A stretch of 7,337 nt of DNA from a virus (Duplodnaviria; Heunggongvirae; Uroviricota; Caudoviricetes): IMG/VR virus record IMGVR_UViG_2671180430_000004, one strand, 5' to 3'. Below, one piece after another: positions 26-7,304 of the stretch (position 1 is the first letter of the stretch; each line of letters starts with the position of its first letter). A model generated the notes under the pieces. That model worked only from the letters and a program-made list of their open reading frames with translations. It ran no database searches and was not told the origin of the DNA. The translations under genes and the position numbers were made by a program.

Positions 26-379
26 TTAAAAAAAGAACAAATGGTAGTGTCCGCTATTGCCAGTACACCTCAATTGCTCTGCGGCTTCGCTCAGAGCTGG
101 CGTATGTTCCCGGCCTACTGATTCACACAGGTAATCAACGAAACCGGACACCAGTTTTCGTTCGCGAGGCGTGATCGCCCCACCGACCGGAGTCCAGTAA
201 TCGAAACCCAGTTGCAGGAGTTTGAAAAAACGCTTGTGGAATGCGTAGTTACACACACGCTTAAAGTCTGCGTGTATCCACTCACCTATTTTGATTTGAT
301 GCAGAAAATCGCAACTCTCCGGCGTCGCCGGGAGAAGTAATCCGGAAGAGGTTTGTTTGACCAGTTGTATATGTGCCAT
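26..379 (-). CDS. hypothetical protein, 117 aa, second gene of a two-gene operon
   Basis: Track ORF 26..421 starts at a TTG (421-419). An in-frame ATG at 379-377 is preceded by GGAG with a 7-nt spacer, giving MAHIQLVKQ... Stop TAA at 28-26. No family recognised. Confidence 0.55.
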   Translation of the reverse strand: MAHIQLVKQTSSGLLLPATPESCDFLHQIKIGEWIHADFKRVCNYAFHKRFFKLLQLGFDYWTPVGGAITPRERKLVSGFVDYLCESVGREHTPALSEAAEQLRCTGNSGHYHLFFF

Positions 380-417
380 CGGCTTTCTCCGGTGGCACGG
401 TGTTACACAGCAGGAGT

Positions 418-705
418 TCAATCCTGCTCAAGATTGTAGATGAGTTTATTCTTCAGCAAAAGCAGAAAACCAGCCTTAAAACCAATCTCTTTCAAAACCC
501 GTAATGATGTGACAAATTCGTCCTCACGCAAAATAAAACCGTCCGTCAGAAGTCCATTACAAAAATAAAATAACACAGCACCGCTCTTCCTTTGTTGAGA
601 TTGCAAACATCTAATGCGGCAATGGCTGACAATCGCTCCATTCTCAACGCGCACAGCATAGAGGCCATTTTCACTAAAAATTTCACGCAATTCTTCGATT
701 TTCAT
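418..705 (-). CDS. hypothetical protein, 95 aa, AT-rich coding sequence; sits where rem lies after hokD in the K-12 Qin prophage (synteny only)
   Basis: ATG at 705-703 preceded by GGAAGGA with an 8-nt spacer. Stop TGA at 420-418. First gene after the hok terminator. Product identity not established. Confidence 0.55.
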   Translation of the reverse strand: MKIEELREIFSENGLYAVRVENGAIVSHCRIRCLQSQQRKSGAVLFYFCNGLLTDGFILREDEFVTSLRVLKEIGFKAGFLLLLKNKLIYNLEQD

Positions 706-954: not shown

Positions 955-1110
955 TTACTTCCTGGATTCGTAGTCTACGAAGACAGCGACCTCCGTCTGG
1001 CCGGTTCGGATTCGTACCTCACAGAGGTCTTTCCTCGTTACCAGTGCCGTCACTATGACGGTTAAACAGATGACGATCAGGGCGATTAACATCGCCTTTT
1101 GCTGCTTCAT
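955..1110 (-). CDS. hokD: Hok/Gef family type I toxin, 51 aa, closest in my memory to HokD/RelF
   Basis: From the ATG at 1110-1108 the product is MKQQKAMLIALIVICLTVIVTALVTRKDLCEVRIRTGQTEVAVFVDYESRK, matching recalled HokD/RelF except for the last residues. AAGGAG lies 9 nt upstream. Stop TAA at 957-955. The track ORF 955..1167 is an in-frame TTG extension into the leader. Confidence 0.85.
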   Translation of the reverse strand: MKQQKAMLIALIVICLTVIVTALVTRKDLCEVRIRTGQTEVAVFVDYESRK

Positions 1111-1286
1111 AGCCTGCTTCTCCTTGCCTTTCGGCATGTAAGAGGCTAACCTACATGTGCAAAGCATGAAATTGGCCTCAGATTAATGTTAAGCGTCTTG
1201 CCGGACGCGTAATGTTAACTGGGGCTTTTCTCTATCTGCCTTTTGGTGTTCATGCCTGAAGCAGATAGCCTCAAGCACCCGCAGTC

Positions 1287-1337: not shown

Positions 1338-2024
1338 TCACTCCTTCTCTTCTTTACCGTAGTGGAGTTGACCAATTTTGATAAGAGGGCGTCCCTGAGA
1401 TTTGCGGTGTAGATTGGTATCGCGCAGAGAATACACACAGCCACAATATTCCTGCTGATAGAATTTTTCGCGCTTGCTGATTTCAATCATACGGGACGAG
1501 CCGCCCTGCTTGCGCCAGTTATAATCCCAGTACACCATGCCCGGATAATGCGCGACGGCTCGCCGCCCACAGTCGTTAACCTGCTGCATATTTTTCCAGC
1601 GTGAAATGCCCAGTGAACTGCTGATCACACTGAAACCATTTTCAGCGGCGTACAGCGCTGTCCGCTCAAAACGCATGTCAAAACACATGGTGCAACGGAT
1701 CCCTCGTTCGGGCTCCCATTCCATTCCTTTGGCTCGTTCAAACCAGTTGTCTGTGTCGTAATCAGCATCAATAAACGGCACGCCGTGTTGTTCAGCAAAG
1801 CGAATATTCTCATCCTTACGAATTAAATACTCTTTCTGAGGATGAATGTTCGGGTTGTAGAAAAAGATGGTGTAGTCGATTCCCGAGGCCTGAAGCGCCT
1901 CCATCACCTCACCGGAACATGGAGCACAGCAAGAGTGCAGTAGTAGTTTGTTTGCCCCGTTTGGGAGCTCCAATTTGGGCCGTTTGAAATCAGCAACTGT
2001 CATAAATATGTTTATTGGGGTCAT
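1338..2024 (-). CDS. queH: QueH-like protein (DUF208, epoxyqueuosine reductase family)
   Basis: 228-aa ORF with N-terminal [19 protein letters not shown], a central CTMC and a C-terminal YCGC, which I recall as the conserved cysteine pattern of QueH/DUF208. ATG at 2024 (alternative ATG at 2003); neither has a clear Shine-Dalgarno. Stop TGA at 1340-1338. Confidence 0.6.
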
Positions 2025-2171
2025 AAAAATATCAAAGAGTGTAGCATTAGAACGGGGCTATCGGAAACAGATGTGTGACTGCTCCCCGCCCTTTCGGGTG
2101 GTCTCCTGATGATTTGAGGGTGCAGAAATCCCTCCGGTTAAGGATTAAATTTTTAACAGTGCTAAATTTAA

Positions 2172-2510: not shown

Positions 2511-2512
2511 TT
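2172..2512. repeat. direct repeat copy A, about 341 bp
   Basis: About 94-95% identical by eye to 3097..3437 with no indels, roughly 18 substitutions and a 9-bp divergent patch near the 3' end. Confidence 0.85.
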
Positions 2513-2882
2513 AAATTGACCCAATCAGATATCCAGCGTCCTCCGCCGGAAATTGAGCAATAAGCTCACCTGTTCGTTCAGCGAGCTCGCGTGCATCACA
2601 TGGAATGTCTTCTATGTAAACAGTGTGCGGTACTGCCCTCATTTTAATGCTGCTTTTTTGCTTTTTTGCAAGGGTATCCCAATATGCAGCTACGATGCTG
2701 AAGCAGTATGAGCGGGCATGCATCAACCTTGACTGCCCGGTTTTGTAATTGCCCGCATAACCTTTGGCCATGGCTTTACAAGTTTGATATCTTTCCAGAT
2801 TAGAAAACTCATTATCTGTAAAAAAATCAAAATGTTGCACATTCATAATGTAAAATCCTAATGTATCAAACATGCGGGCCAT
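2511..2882 (-). CDS. hypothetical protein, 123 aa, cargo ORF between the repeat copies
   Basis: ATG at 2882-2880 giving MARMFDTLGFYIMNVQHF... Stop TAA at 2513-2511. No obvious Shine-Dalgarno at the first ATG; an alternative ATG (MNVQ, about 2846) has AGGA upstream. The N-terminal third is encoded by markedly AT-rich DNA. No family recognised. Confidence 0.5.
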   Translation of the reverse strand: MARMFDTLGFYIMNVQHFDFFTDNEFSNLERYQTCKAMAKGYAGNYKTGQSRLMHARSYCFSIVAAYWDTLAKKQKSSIKMRAVPHTVYIEDIPCDARELAERTGELIAQFPAEDAGYLIGSI

Positions 2883-3096
2883 AACATCTCATGGTGGCGC
2901 ATAGCAAACTGGCCCGAAGAATATCACGCACCAAGTCGATCTCATAACCCGTTATGACAATAAATCTTTGTAGCTGAACTCACTTGGTGATTTGTCAATC
3001 ATTCCTGGCCTCCAGTTCGTCCTGAATCTCTTTATCGAGTTCACCGTATTTGTTAGTCCTCATCACTCACGACTTGACTTCCAGAAATAACCTTGA

Positions 3097-3437
3097 TTAT
3101 TCGGGGCTATATTTTGTCACCCTGCGTATCCGCGCTTTCGCATTACGCTCAATCTGGATTAGCTTTTCTATATTTTTTCGCCTTTCCCGCTCCTCCTGGC
3201 GCAAGAGCCTTACATCATCTGCCAGTCTGGTTTCTCTTTTCGCCACAGAGAGCATCCAGTCAAATGGCTCCACAACTGCACCGCAAATTTTACAGCGGAC
3301 CTGACGCTCTTTTTCGTCAACCCGGACAGAAGCGTGATGGCAATATGGTCTTTCCGATGGCTCATAAAGAAAATTAACCTGATTACGAGGGTTATCCTCT
3401 TTTACCGGAAATAAAACAATATTGCTTAACTCATCTT
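3097..3437. repeat. direct repeat copy B, about 341 bp
   Basis: Homologous to 2172..2512; this copy carries the intact gene. Confidence 0.85.
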
Positions 3438-3453
3438 CTGGTTTTATTTCCAT
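3097..3453 (-). CDS. small Cys/His zinc-ribbon-like protein, 118 aa
   Basis: ATG at 3453-3451 preceded by AAGGAGAGGAG; the track start is an upstream GTG at 3510. Stop TAA at 3099-3097. Motif C-H-H...C-K-I-C-G. Differences from the paralogous copy are about 13 synonymous to 4 nonsynonymous in this frame, supporting minus-strand coding. Confidence 0.7.
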   Translation of the reverse strand: MEIKPEDELSNIVLFPVKEDNPRNQVNFLYEPSERPYCHHASVRVDEKERQVRCKICGAVVEPFDWMLSVAKRETRLADDVRLLRQEERERRKNIEKLIQIERNAKARIRRVTKYSPE

Positions 3454-3510
3454 GCTCCTCTCCTTTGATGCGAATGCCAGCGGTAATTGAAGCCTGATAG
3501 CTAATTTCAC

Positions 3511-3933
3511 TCACAGTACCGCCTCCTGAAAATCACCCTGATAGAAAGCCGGTACACGCTGCATAACTTCACTCTTCCGGCACTCGCGACAGATTATGTT
3601 CTGATGTCTGTCGTAGCGGCGTATTTCTCCGTCCGGTAATGACCAGATAAGGTCCGGATCAACCACAGATGGTTTCTTCAGCTTTGCCCTCGAGAGTTTT
3701 TTGCGGGCGTTTTGCCAGTCCTTACGAGCCTGTTCAGACGGGAATAACCCGTAGCCAGAGTTGTATACATCCCCACTGGCAACCAGCTCTCTGGCGAGAA
3801 CGCTTATTAAATATCTTGTCGCCCCGGTTTTAGCTTCCAGTTGTCGTAACGTCTCGCGCCCACTCTGGCGTACGAGTTCAACAACCTGCCCCTTAATTTT
3901 TTCCCGCTCTTCCTGTGTAAATACTTTTGCCAT
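3511..3933 (-). CDS. Ren-like protein (tentative), 140 aa
   Basis: ATG at 3933-3931 (MAKVFTQ...); the track start is a TTG at 3948. Stop TGA at 3513-3511. The C-terminal ICRECRKSEVMQRV resembles the C-terminus of lambda Ren as I recall it (FKECRQSAAMKRV), and the gene sits after the P-analog as ren does after P. Identity is tentative. Confidence 0.55.
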   Translation of the reverse strand: MAKVFTQEEREKIKGQVVELVRQSGRETLRQLEAKTGATRYLISVLARELVASGDVYNSGYGLFPSEQARKDWQNARKKLSRAKLKKPSVVDPDLIWSLPDGEIRRYDRHQNIICRECRKSEVMQRVPAFYQGDFQEAVL

Positions 3934-3948
3934 AAGCGCCCCCGGCAA

Positions 3949-4674
3949 TCACTTTTCCGACACAATACGACCGGAGGAATCGACAATCTGTCGAACAATA
4001 TCCCGGTGCTTGTTCAGCTCCCGCAACGCGGCGCAGACACGCTCCCACTTCTGGACATGACTTTTCGCCCGACGCAGTTCGCGGTTTGCCATATGCAGCG
4101 ATGGTAAAACCAGGTCATCCGCTTGCGTTTCGGTGAACGATGGCAACGACTGCACAATGTCCGCCACAGTTTCTGTTTTAATTTCTTCCTGTGTTGCAGC
4201 TTCCTGTACCGGTAACGCAACACCTGCTGGCTGAGGAAAGACTTTACCATCCGTTTCCGCTATGGATGCGGCTTTCGGCTCTGCCGGTAAATCAGCGCCC
4301 GGTATGCAGTACCGAAATTTACCGCCCTGATTCACGCGAATCAGACGCCCTTTGCTGATTGCCATGGCCAGCGATGAATTCGCCCGGCGGGAGGTAATCC
4401 CGAACATCAGTGCCAGCTCATCCGCCGTTTGTGGGCCATGTTGTTCAATCGCCTCAGTCAGCATTTGCGCTGTCACTTTCGGTACCGGTGACACTGGTTC
4501 ACTTTCACCAGCCTGAATCAGCCACCACATCGAACCCTTGTTATCCGCTTCACCACGGCGCTTCAGTTTCCACAGTTCGTTGACCGCATCTTCACGGCTG
4601 ATTCCAAGGCGGGACGCCACCACATGTGAAGAGGCTCTTTTCAGTGCTTTCAGTGCGTCAAATACAGTTTCCAT
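3949..4674 (-). CDS. hypothetical protein with two tandem winged-helix-like domains, 241 aa
   Basis: ATG at 4674-4672 preceded by GGAGG with a 7-nt spacer; the track start is a TTG at 4692. Stop TGA at 3951-3949. Two HTH-like segments ([19 protein letters not shown] and [24 protein letters not shown]) separated from a basic C-terminal region. Confidence 0.7.
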
Positions 4675-4695
4675 TAAAACATCCTCCAACAAAAA

Positions 4696-5442
4696 TTACT
4701 TCACAACTCCCGGAAAGCTGACATTTGAACGCCAGCTATCCCAGTTAAACGTCACCCACCGACAACCGTTCATGGTCATGCGGTCCATAATCCTCTCACC
4801 AAGAAGCGTGCTCATTGCGGCATGATTCAGGTTTGTTAACATCCCGACACTGCACAGTGATGCTGTCCGGCGATCAATTATCTGGTGCAATACCACCTGC
4901 TCGTTTTTCGTCTCCCGCTGAATGCCTATTTCATCCAGGACCAGCAAATCAACCCCGCAAAGCTCCTGTAAAAATTTTTCACCGGATTTGCCGTTGTCGT
5001 AGCTGTCATGCAACACGCTCATGACATCAGACTCGGTGACGATAATCACGCTGCGCCCCTTCGCCATCAGCCGGTTACCCATCGCCGCTGCAAGGTGATT
5101 TTTCCCGGTGCCGGTTTTACCGCTGAACACAAAATTCGTGCACCCGGTCATCAGTTCGTCAGCTATGGATTTGGCCTGGCTCAGCGCGTATTTTTGCCCG
5201 TCGTTCTGCACCTGATAATTCGCAAACGAGCATTTGCTGTGCAGAGGCTGGATGCCCGAACGATTCAGGATTTTTTCCACCCGCAACTGGCGATTCTGGC
5301 GGTTAATCTCCTCGCTGCGTTTTCGTCCTTCAGCAAGTTGCCATTCCCGCCACTCCTCCACCGTCCGGTACGGTGGAACCGCCCCCTGTGGTGCAAGTCT
5401 GTGAATACGTTCAAGAACCCCGGCTGCCGCAATGTTTTTCAT
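4696..5442 (-). CDS. DnaC-like AAA+ helicase loader (phage P analog, Rac YdaV-like)
   Basis: 248 aa. Walker A FSGKTGTGKNHLAAA with the DnaC-type GKN, Walker B LLVLDEIG. ATG at 5442-5440 lies 6 nt after the stop of the upstream initiator gene. Stop TAA at 4698-4696. Confidence 0.85.
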   Translation of the reverse strand: MKNIAAAGVLERIHRLAPQGAVPPYRTVEEWREWQLAEGRKRSEEINRQNRQLRVEKILNRSGIQPLHSKCSFANYQVQNDGQKYALSQAKSIADELMTGCTNFVFSGKTGTGKNHLAAAMGNRLMAKGRSVIIVTESDVMSVLHDSYDNGKSGEKFLQELCGVDLLVLDEIGIQRETKNEQVVLHQIIDRRTASLCSVGMLTNLNHAAMSTLLGERIMDRMTMNGCRWVTFNWDSWRSNVSFPGVVK

Positions 5443-5448
5443 GCCACA

Positions 5449-6513
5449 TCACCCCCTGAATCCCGGCGGAATTTCGGTATCCGGTTCAGAAATATGATTC
5501 ACACAACGCTGGTTGTTCGTGCCGCTTACCGGGAGCAACCAGGGGTTTTCAAAATTCCGGTCCGGCCCAAAAAACGTCGTCGCTCGCTGAACAAATTCCG
5601 TTCCCGCTTTCCCGGTCGCCGCCAGGTATCTCGCGTAACGCCTCACACCATCCAGCATGGTCTCTGGTGGCACCCCCTCGCGCAATCTGGCCTTCCAGGC
5701 ACTGAATGCGGATTTCTTCGGGTTTGCCCCGGCACGCAACGGGTATTCCCGCCAGACCTGTTCGAACACATCCGGATAATCCACTCGTCCCACAGGCTGC
5801 CCGGTGTTTTCCGGGGCTACCCGATCGGCTTCCCGCTGAATGGCGGAATCGGCTTCAGGCTGCTGCAGTTGGAGTGATTGCTCCGGCCTTGCGGTCATCA
5901 CCTGCTGCACAGCGCCCGAATCGGCTTTCAGCGCATACGCTGAATCGGCTTCCGGTGTCGAGCCTGCTGGCTGACCAGGATTGACGGTCTGAACATCCCC
6001 TGCCTGGTTCGTGGCGTTTTTTACGCCATGGACCATAGTGTTTTGATCTTCTTTATCTGTATCTTTATCTGTATCTGTCGTGACTCGTCGTGACATGTGC
6101 GTGACATTTCGTGACGCGCCGTGACAATCGCCATTTTGTTCCCGCTTTCTTTCCCTCTCTCGCTGCGCCCTCTTGCGCTCTGCAGGAGATTTTGCGGTTT
6201 GCGAAATATTGCCGTTGTCCTCTTTAAGCACCTGGCGTTTTTCCCATCCAGTGATTAAATCACCATCAAGTACCCGCCCCTGCATCGTCTGCAAAATTGA
6301 ATCAATTACCTCTTCTGTCACGTCGAGCGCACTTGCCAAATCTTCTGTCGTGACATCAATGTGACCTCGCGTGACATTTCGTGACGCGCTCACCAGGAGG
6401 TGGATATACACTGCCATCACTGTTGCAATTGGCTGCCCTGACACCCTGGCAATTGTTCGCCACTTAGGGTCATTTGGCATGTCATGCCATAATCTGAGCC
6501 AGGCGTTAGCCAT
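5449..6513 (-). CDS. phage replication initiation protein (O-like replisome organiser)
   Basis: ATG at 6513-6511; the track start is a GTG at 6519. The N-terminal domain (WLRLWHDMPNDPKWRTIARVSGQ...) resembles phage replisome-organiser/DnaD-like N-domains, followed by a charged low-complexity linker and a conserved C-terminal domain. It lies directly upstream of the DnaC-like gene and contains iteron arrays. Confidence 0.8.
   Translation of the reverse strand: MANAWLRLWHDMPNDPKWRTIARVSGQPIATVMAVYIHLLVSASRNVTRGHIDVTTEDLASALDVTEEVIDSILQTMQGRVLDGDLITGWEKRQVLKEDNGNISQTAKSPAERKRAQRERERKREQNGDCHGASRNVTHMSRRVTTDTDKDTDKEDQNTMVHGVKNATNQAGDVQTVNPGQPAGSTPEADSAYALKADSGAVQQVMTARPEQSLQLQQPEADSAIQREADRVAPENTGQPVGRVDYPDVFEQVWREYPLRAGANPKKSAFSAWKARLREGVPPETMLDGVRRYARYLAATGKAGTEFVQRATTFFGPDRNFENPWLLPVSGTNNQRCVNHISEPDTEIPPGFRG
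6035..6125. repeat. putative origin core: AT-rich tract plus five phased CGTGAC iterons
   Basis: GTGAC at 6080, 6090, 6101, 6111 and 6121 (spacing 10, 11, 10, 10 bp), immediately 3' of the AT-rich tract ATCTTCTTTATCTGTATCTTTATCTGTATCTGT (about 6046-6078). Lies in the linker-coding part of the initiator gene. Confidence 0.55.
6317..6389. repeat. second iteron array: four phased GTGAC plus one inverted copy
   Basis: GTGAC at 6350, 6361, 6371 and 6381 (spacing 11, 10, 10 bp) and GTCACG at 6317-6322. The 21-bp block GCGTGACATTTCGTGACGCGC at 6369-6389 is identical to 6099-6119. Confidence 0.55.
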
Positions 6514-6584
6514 ACTCACCTCTTCTGATACCGAATCTTTTTACTCACGAGTTGCCGGGAGCGATTCGATATGGCTATTGTCAG

Positions 6585-7010
6585 TCAATGTACTGCCACA
6601 GCATTTCCTGCCGGGCCACCACGGTTCATCTGATTGAAACCGGCGATTGCCACTGCGACAAAATCATCAGCGTCTCTCACCAGTCGTTCATGCGTCTCCA
6701 CCAGTTCCCGAAAATAAGCTGAACTGTGGCTGCGCATTCGAGCCACCAGCGGAGGTGGCATTGCCCTTTCGATCGCAGGTAACAACGCCTGAATTTTTTC
6801 AACAGCGTCAGGGGTGTCTTTATCCAGCCAACGGAAAATCTTTTGGGTGTTGAGATAAAGCGTGTTGTGCTTGCTGTCGTTATGCAGAACCGGAAACGTC
6901 ATTCCCAGTTCGAAATAAACCCTGGTTATTTCAGCTGCCGGAACTTTTTCACCGTCCGGATGCGCCCAGGCTTTCATCGCCATGCGGATGTGTTCATGCT
7001 TGATTTTCAT
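6585..7010 (-). CDS. YdaT-family protein (CII-like regulator)
   Basis: 141 aa starting MKIKHEHI and ending AVH, matching my recollection of Rac YdaT in length and termini. The ATG overlaps the stop of the upstream gene as ATGA (7010-7007). Confidence 0.65.
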   Translation of the reverse strand: MKIKHEHIRMAMKAWAHPDGEKVPAAEITRVYFELGMTFPVLHNDSKHNTLYLNTQKIFRWLDKDTPDAVEKIQALLPAIERAMPPPLVARMRSHSSAYFRELVETHERLVRDADDFVAVAIAGFNQMNRGGPAGNAVAVH

Positions 7011-7270
7011 GAATCAACCCCCGCCGATGGTTGTGTGTTAGCCTGAAACTCAGCAGGCAAGCCGTCAGTTGGGTTGGGGTAGGTTTTACTGTCAATCTCA
7101 TGTGGGGTCACCACCCATCCCGTTGCTTCACACCAACGTAATATTTTTTCTCCTGTAAGTTTTGCACGCCCCGTTATAACGTGGCTGACCATCCCTTGGG
7201 ATGCGCCAACAATCTCAGCAAATGAACTCTGGGTTATATGAAAATGATGCAAATATTCTCCAAGATTCAT
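7007..7270 (-). CDS. Cro-like HTH regulator (YdaS family)
   Basis: ATG at 7270-7268 preceded by AGGG; the track start is a TTG at 7297. HTH segment QSSFAEIVGASQGMVSHVITGRAKLTGEKILRW. First gene after an AT-rich promoter region at the window edge. Confidence 0.65.
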   Translation of the reverse strand: MNLGEYLHHFHITQSSFAEIVGASQGMVSHVITGRAKLTGEKILRWCEATGWVVTPHEIDSKTYPNPTDGLPAEFQANTQPSAGVDS

Positions 7271-7304
7271 AATCCGCCCTATGTGATGTGTTACCAATGC
7301 ATAA

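Follow-up and report, generated by a model that had tools for sequence, protein, structure and literature searches.

A QueH-family gene in a cargo slot of lambdoid prophages of Escherichia coli

Introduction

Why do bacteria that own one enzyme for the last step of queuosine synthesis, QueG, carry the gene of another, QueH, on phages and plasmids? The question seems never to have been asked. It is raised here by a stretch of DNA of 7,337 nucleotides (nt), called the window in what follows, which represents the early-right region of a lambdoid prophage (IMG/VR record IMGVR_UViG_2671180430_000004). The window contains on its minus strand, at 1338-2024, an open reading frame (ORF) with the marks of the QueH family. 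A first-pass annotation, made from the letters of the sequence, had read this ORF as a QueH-like (DUF208) protein next to a hok toxin and had thought such a gene unexpected in enterobacteria, which normally use QueG.

QueG and QueH carry out the same reaction but are not orthologous and differ in fold and in cofactor. The final step of queuosine (Q) synthesis depends on cobalamin when it is performed by QueG (PMC4646009), whereas QueH has been described as iron-dependent (PMC13443448). The substrate of QueH, tRNA containing epoxyqueuosine (oQ), is made in E. coli through tgt and queA (PMC5372724). A survey published in 2019 of queuosine-pathway genes in viruses found no homologue of QueA, QueG or QueH (PMC6884629).

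The analysis described below makes it fairly probable that the prophage gene is a captured housekeeping queH, carried as cargo that benefits the host by finishing queuosine synthesis without cobalamin.

Results

An intact member of the QueH family

The features of the gene and its upstream region, all on the minus strand, are as follows.

1338-2024, minus strand: queH ORF taken from the first ATG, 228 amino acids (aa), from the ORF list and the Pfam QueH match
1338-2003, minus strand: queH coding sequence from the conserved start, 221 aa plus stop, from Pfam, the annotation pipeline PGAP and the alignment of homologues
2004-2024, minus strand: seven extra in-frame codons up to the first ATG, probably leader and not coding
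2004-2074, minus strand: upstream leader that moves with queH, from blastn boundaries and the alignment of 14 upstream variants
2038-2046, minus strand: TGCTACACT, an extended -10-like element and putative native promoter, 43 nt upstream of the ATG, recognized by its conservation

Judged by its sequence, the ORF is an intact, bona fide member of the QueH family (DUF208, PF02677, COG1636). The protein matches the Pfam model PF02677 over positions 1-174 of 175, with an E-value of 1.9e-65 and a score of 220.6 bits against a cut-off of 23.5, and it matches QueH of Thermotoga maritima in the PDB (7lc5) with an E-value of 5.3e-22 at 30% identity, a likeness well beyond chance. The four motifs on which the first-pass annotation had based its identification are all present: HSCCAPC at residues 30-36 of the 228-aa ORF, FYNPNIHP at 55-62, CTMC at 111-114 and YCGC at 193-196. 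The conserved cysteines of the family, which bind the metal centres, form the set CCxPC ... CxxC ... CxC, and the set is complete in the prophage protein. In a family alignment of 22 sequences, consisting of the prophage protein and 21 homologues 29-86% identical to it, seven cysteines are invariant (C25, C26, C29, C104, C107, C187 and C189, in the numbering of the 221-aa protein), as are H23, R103 and Y186, and the prophage protein possesses every one of these residues. The identification thus held up both in the Pfam search and in the retention of the conserved cysteines.

The predicted fold agrees. The five best matches found by Foldseek for an AlphaFold2 model of the protein are all structures of T. 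maritima QueH (7lc7, 7lc5, 9dco, 9d86 and 9deu), with target TM-scores of 0.78-0.80 and E-values of about 1e-8 to 1e-9. The next matches are to adenine-nucleotide alpha-hydrolase-like enzymes (TtuA, LarE), at E-values of 1e-5 or worse. The prophage protein and T. maritima QueH (7lc5, 7lc7, 9deu) have in common the full-length domain, the predicted fold and the length class of about 180-220 aa; they differ in that the one is prophage-borne and the other chromosomal. Beyond the Pfam domain, the prophage protein has a C-terminal extension of about 20-25 residues, which is common to its close gammaproteobacterial homologues. Taken by its sequence and its modelled fold, the ORF very probably encodes a QueH enzyme.

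The start of queH

The ORF has two in-frame ATGs, at window positions 2024 and 2003. In strain A10, an in-frame stop lies just upstream of the second ATG; chromosomal homologues (214-222 aa) align from the second ATG; and PGAP starts the identical gene at the same place. Because the three coincide, the likely product is the protein of 221 aa that begins at the conserved start, 2003. The codons at 2004-2024 are absent from the chromosomal homologues and are not conserved as coding in strain A10. The extent of 1338-2024 given in the first-pass annotation is therefore right for the open frame but probably not for the protein.

Existing annotations err in the other direction. Residue 41 of the 228-aa ORF is an internal Met with GGTGAGGTG in front of it, which is probably why the profile of PHROG 3217 begins at this residue, omitting the CCAPC motif, and why an older annotation (locus L003, 9109-9678) presents a 'putative prophage protein' of 189 aa that starts at the internal Met. 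Gene models of this kind lose three of the invariant cysteines. PHROGs lists the family (phrog_3217) as 'unknown function'. The systematic error in the start codon conceals the QueH identity of the gene and probably helped to hide it from earlier surveys.

queH in chromosomes, prophages and plasmids

The relatives of the prophage protein were surveyed through the best 120 of 8,000 scored homologues. These 120 are 75-90% identical to it, and the named sources among them include Erwinia, Gibbsiella, Photorhabdus, Providencia, Proteus, Ewingella, Pantoea, Dickeya, Serratia, Sodalis and others. The QueH proteins of Providencia, Photorhabdus and Erwinia are 80-86% identical in amino acids over their whole length. 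The gene of Providencia is chromosomal and free of phage neighbours, adjoining tmcA/purC/bamC/dapA, and so is that of Erwinia, which lies between purL and glrK; these two settings are clearly core. The copy of Photorhabdus, too, has a chromosomal setting without phage genes, and the inspected copies of 85% and 90% identity lack phage neighbours as well. QueH is no stranger to enterobacteria.

The situation in E. coli is different. The gene is found in 995 of 5,426 complete genomes (18%), and in 985 of the 995 the match spans at least 80% of its length. All 5,426 genomes have queG, so every carrier of queH has both. All the E. coli copies whose context was inspected lie among lambdoid prophage genes, a cargo slot of a species with QueG of its own, in contrast to the phage-free neighbourhoods of the chromosomal relatives. 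The first-pass view that QueH is out of place in enterobacteria accordingly stands for E. coli but not for Providencia or Erwinia. The novelty it implied is lessened: in RefSeq/PGAP the identical protein already bears the name 'epoxyqueuosine reductase QueH', and the gene is common.

It also recurs in prophages, as a survey of the kind the first-pass annotation proposed made plain. Prophages of strain 042, O157:H7, A10 and an ST131 isolate provide examples, and 199 viral contigs of IMG/VR encode a relative, 80 of which were tabulated by locus. Other records labelled as phage were set aside. 'Acinetobacter phage MD-2021a' (CAKLQH020000001.1, locus L003, 328 kb, 78% identity) contains genes for a type VI secretion system, soxR and metabolic genes and looks like a bacterial chromosome, while the Staphylococcus, Listeria and 'Bacteriophage sp.' records (L014-L018) are unannotated and flagged UNVERIFIED or UNVERIFIED_ORG.

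Besides prophages, 20 plasmids carry queH; Klebsiella accounts for 16 of them, E. coli for two, and Salmonella and Enterobacter for one each, and 15 of the 20 are typed as conjugative. The two that were inspected are both conjugative IncF plasmids: p90CM2-172k of K. pneumoniae (L103) and pCFSAN024441_02 of Salmonella (L104). Their queH genes, at about 85-92% nucleotide identity, lie in accessory regions flanked by insertion sequences (IS), where the neighbours are IS elements, fragments of TonB and the fec genes of iron uptake; phage genes are absent from the surroundings.

An apparent one-gene cassette in a cargo slot

How much DNA travels with the gene can be estimated from blastn comparisons with prophages that are otherwise unrelated. 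Homology between them starts at about window position 2074 (at 2051 in strain A10, whose allele diverges most) and in some cases stops at about 1332, 6 nt past the stop codon of queH. These boundaries indicate that the mobile unit is a single gene plus a leader of about 50-70 nt, about 0.74 kb in all. Just upstream of the cassette boundary, at 2079-2096 on the minus strand, lies a GC-rich hairpin with a GAAA loop (CCACCC-GAAA-GGGCGG). In a sister variant, CCGCCC makes the stem perfect. No run of T follows the hairpin.

In prophages of the Rac/Qin type, queH occupies a slot directly after a DUF977/Ren-like gene or after the one or two small cargo genes that follow that gene. The slot is one of variable presence at a fixed place between conserved phage modules. 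What stands downstream also varies. The neighbour is hokD in strain 042, the ST131 isolate and FDAARGOS_944, and a DUF1971 gene in strain A10. In Z1768 of O157:H7 (locus L010, 7872-9882) the place is taken by a DNA cytosine methyltransferase and a restriction endonuclease of the NgoMIV family, with no hok. The slot 3' of queH, in other words, exchanges toxin-antitoxin and restriction-modification cargo.

Selection and expression signals

Pairwise ratios of nonsynonymous to synonymous substitution (dN/dS) among E. coli alleles of queH are 0.02-0.05, at dS values up to 0.45. The gene is intact in all 87 copies examined, which encode just seven protein variants. By these comparisons of sequence, queH is under very strong purifying selection, and the reading of the gene as a pseudogene or a decaying passenger is ruled out by the dN/dS ratios together with the intact copies. 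The GC fraction of queH, 0.49, is that of the window as a whole.

Upstream of the gene, each of the 14 distinct variants has ATGCTACAC unchanged, and TGCTACAC stands 40-43 nt before the ATG in the Klebsiella and Salmonella IncF plasmid copies and in the chromosomal copy of Erwinia. The pattern TGnTAnAnT resembles an extended -10 element. Since the element is conserved at the same spacing across mobile and chromosomal copies, queH would seem to have brought along its own native promoter, which would allow expression in the lysogen.

The hok/sok neighbour

The next locus downstream of queH is described by two features.

955-1167, minus strand: mok/hok reading frames, from Pfam HOK_GEF and the NCBIfam Hok family
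1105-1280, minus strand: Rfam sok match (RF01794), hok leader and regulatory region

The hok toxin of the first-pass annotation is there. The ORF at 955-1167 matches Pfam HOK_GEF (PF01848) with an E-value of 9.8e-23 and also the Hok family of NCBIfam; Hok proper, of 51 aa by our own count, is encoded at 955-1110, and in a prophage with the identical queH, hokD is annotated downstream of queH as a gene of 156 nt. The sok model RF01794 scores 117 bits against a gathering score of 59 (E-value 6.3e-27), and a promoter-like site lies at 1316-1287 on the minus strand. The sok match falls on the hok/mok strand, although Sok is an antisense RNA to the hok leader, perhaps because the model was made from the sense strand or takes in the regulatory region as a whole.

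A hok/sok locus lies within 700 nt downstream of queH in 64 of 78 viral loci, and hok is not adjacent to queH in Z1768 of O157:H7, in strain A10 or in the plasmid copies. Frequent as it is, the adjacency can be dispensed with, and its probable basis is a cargo slot that the two loci share, not a function in common.

The remaining genes of the window

All genes of the window are on the minus strand, and those not yet described are, in order of transcription:

7007-7297, minus strand: Cro-like helix-turn-helix protein, first in transcription order
6585-7010, minus strand: YdaT-family protein, from a family profile match
5449-6519, minus strand: replisome organiser, from a family profile match
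4696-5442, minus strand: DnaC-like loader, from a family profile match
3949-4692, minus strand: DUF1627 protein, from a family profile match
3511-3948, minus strand: DUF977/Ren-like protein, from a family profile match
3097-3510, minus strand: phrog_1621 protein, from PHROG
2511-2882, minus strand: 123-aa ORF, from the ORF list
418-705, minus strand: phrog_340 ORF, from PHROG
26-421, minus strand: NinB, last in transcription order

This set of genes bears out the prophage setting that had been assigned to the stretch. The prophage has a mosaic make-up. Coverage of the window in a single place reaches no more than 68% in any complete E. coli genome, the best contig of IMG/VR accounts for 6,361 of the 7,337 bases, and the segment with queH is 100% identical to strain FDAARGOS_944.

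The 123-aa ORF at 2511-2882 has no match in Pfam, NCBIfam or PHROG. It does match positions 2-116 of a model of a type II DNA methyltransferase 604 residues in length (PADLOC PDLC03338, E-value 5.8e-36), and this match suggests a phage methyltransferase of which an N-terminal fragment is left. In phage HannyBb, a small ORF at the equivalent place is annotated 'DNA methyltransferase'. The 123-aa ORF is flanked by the two copies of a 300-nt direct repeat (2163-2462 and 3088-3387, 92% identity), which holds the 3' part of the phrog_1621 gene in duplicate; the gene is complete at 3097-3510 and truncated, with 58 aa, at 2172-2348. The arrangement was seen in one of the 80 tabulated loci of IMG/VR and suggests that an insertion or a recombination has taken place in the cargo slot. 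Within the replisome-organiser gene, clusters of GTGAC-containing repeats (CGTGACATTTCGTGAC and similar) lie at 6087-6125 and 6347-6385. They look like the iterons of a replication origin lying inside an O-like gene, the situation known from lambda.

Discussion

The reading we favour, and consider fairly probable, is that the prophage queH is a housekeeping gene captured for the benefit of the host. According to this reading, the gene would have been taken from the chromosome of another member of the Enterobacterales and would travel as a one-gene cassette, with its leader and probably its own promoter, occupying on prophages of the Rac/Qin type the cargo slot between the DUF977/Ren-like gene and the nin/Q region, and found also on plasmids. 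The product would be a cobalamin-independent, iron-sulfur epoxyqueuosine reductase, turning oQ at position 34 of tRNA-Asp, -Asn, -His and -Tyr into Q. E. coli is not known to make cobalamin de novo and would have to scavenge it. Because QueG needs cobalamin, and E. coli always has QueG, a mobile QueH would make the formation of Q independent of corrinoids, and the host could complete the synthesis whether or not they are available. QueH would thus be a 'moron', a function of lysogenic conversion that benefits the host. Activity on oQ-tRNA, expression in the lysogen from the upstream element, and benefit under limitation for B12 are what we infer from the evidence at hand. A benefit to the host is favoured over a role in lytic growth because the gene is carried by plasmids as well as by prophages and is retained in a Rac-type element.

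A precedent is found in Staphylococcus aureus, which has both QueG and QueH, differently expressed, a situation that has been read as reflecting the availability of cofactors (PMC13443448). Like the E. coli carriers, it possesses in one organism two redundant enzymes for the final step with different cofactors. In E. coli, the second enzyme is accessory and is found on mobile elements, a kind of carriage that is not known for QueH of S. aureus. QueH of Acinetobacter has reportedly been validated experimentally.

Several results weigh against the reading of queH as host-benefit cargo, some of them touching the enzyme, some its expression and some the benefit. With regard to the enzyme, Asp13 of T. 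maritima QueH, a residue probed by the structure of a D13N mutant (9dco), is replaced in the prophage protein by a cysteine (C29). Every other aligned homologue has a cysteine at this position, making T. maritima the exception and the prophage protein the norm of the family. The AlphaFold2 model is of moderate confidence (mean predicted local distance difference test score 73.3, predicted template modelling score 0.74), owing to the shallowness of the input alignment (78-86% identity). Also, no NCBIfam model matches the protein, so the name QueH given by PGAP must stem from another rule.

With regard to expression, neither candidate ATG is preceded by a Shine-Dalgarno sequence, a lack that the first-pass annotation had correctly noted, and expression may be low. 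The sequence is missing as well from the chromosomal copy of Providencia and from the copy in the Acinetobacter-like record, and for this reason its absence appears to be a habit of the gene lineage rather than a sign of decay. A simple scan for the sigma-70 consensus found no promoter upstream of queH on its strand, and a scan for terminators found none between the stop codon of queH and hok. The gene may, then, be silent in the lysogen and merely read through from the early-right operon. With regard to the benefit, a search of the literature turned up nothing relevant on QueH of prophages or phages, no paper on the queH protein, and no documented difference in fitness between cells with oQ-tRNA and those with Q-tRNA, so that the benefit is conjectural.

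It is possible but not likely that QueH instead serves the phage. The gene would in that case be expressed by delayed-early read-through from pR, and the rapid conversion of the oQ-tRNA of the host to Q-tRNA during lytic growth would tune the decoding of NAU and NAC codons in late genes. The position of queH suits such a role: it is on the same strand as the replication genes and directly downstream of them, with no predicted terminator or strong promoter between. Also, several of the prophages with queH carry tRNA genes further downstream, as though the adjustment of translation were a theme of the region, and an isolated phage, HannyBb, carries queH. However, the tRNAs listed for these prophages (Ile, Arg, Thr, Gly) are not substrates for Q. 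Nor would a gene that serves the phage be expected in IncF plasmids, where the same cassette is found with no phage genes around it, or to be kept intact in the Rac-type prophage of strain 042. The Rac type of prophage is defective in K-12. Finally, the element upstream of queH is common to a chromosomal copy, which points to autonomous expression.

Two other roles are very improbable. In the first, which the first-pass annotation had entertained, QueH acts on some 7-deazaguanine other than that of tRNA, perhaps a base modified in the DNA of the phage, or a nucleoside or base that is free and undergoes salvage. Phages are known to place 7-deazaguanines in their DNA (PMC6884629), and the nucleoside alone can bind to QueH, as the crystal structure with free queuosine (9deu) attests. 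The phage sets of the Dpd type resemble the prophage queH in placing queuosine-pathway genes on phages, but they modify DNA by means of the transglycosylase DpdA together with genes for the synthesis of preQ0 (FolE/QueC/QueD/QueE) (PMC6884629), whereas the prophage queH stands by itself: neither a DpdA/TGT-like transglycosylase nor FolE, QueC, QueD or QueE is encoded in the window or in an annotated 40-kb prophage with an identical queH. The possibility that queH takes part in the modification of DNA was rejected for this lack of partner genes. Also, 80-90% identity to chromosomal QueH, with all invariant residues kept, leaves little room for a change of substrate.

In the second, given as little credence as the first, QueH takes part in conflict, the oQ or Q status of tRNA protecting against anticodon nucleases such as colicin E5 or sensitizing to them, or QueH working together with hok. 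The link to anticodon nucleases, raised in the first-pass annotation, is speculative. It is true that the cargo slot also houses a toxin-antitoxin locus or a restriction-modification system and that hok/sok so often follows queH, but nothing other than location speaks for a role in defence or counter-defence. The adjacency of hok is dispensable, chromosomal orthologues of queH do not lie in defence contexts, and no defence model of PADLOC matches the QueH protein at an E-value of 0.01 or below. To our knowledge, Hok, a membrane toxin, has no link to tRNA.

That queH is a decaying or neutral hitch-hiker, functionless in E. coli, is barely credible and is largely refuted by the analysis of selection, for whatever the missing Shine-Dalgarno sequence, the lack of a strong consensus promoter, the redundancy with a universal queG and the PHROGs label may suggest, all 87 copies examined are intact under low dN/dS, the missing sequence is missing from chromosomal copies too, and independent acquisitions of the gene have occurred in prophages and plasmids of several genera.

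The enzyme family was known, and RefSeq had already named the protein, an uncharacterised member with close chromosomal relatives in neighbouring genera. The spread by prophages and plasmids among Enterobacteriaceae of a queuosine enzyme of the tRNA branch, with QueG in every E. coli carrier, is mildly new. The carriage of queH by viruses qualifies the published statement that QueA, QueG and QueH are absent from them (PMC6884629). About one in five complete E. coli genomes has on a prophage the gene of a second, cobalamin-independent enzyme for Q, and queH on prophages and plasmids represents unexplored variation of the accessory genome in the capacity to modify tRNA.

One may go further and suppose, as a speculation we hold to be unlikely in this full form, that mobile QueH is a fitness factor of lysogenic conversion and of plasmids that uncouples the maturation of Q-tRNA from the supply of corrinoids in gut Enterobacteriaceae having only the B12-dependent QueG. 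If that were so, no phage-borne enzyme devoted to the tRNA branch of queuosine synthesis would have been described before it, and the susceptibility of cells to toxins acting on tRNAs of the Q family could change as well. Queuosine influences how accurately and how fast codons are decoded, and links to biofilm formation and virulence have been described (PMC10570037). Hosts short of B12 would then read their Asp, Asn, His and Tyr codons differently, owing to the queH that phages and plasmids carry.

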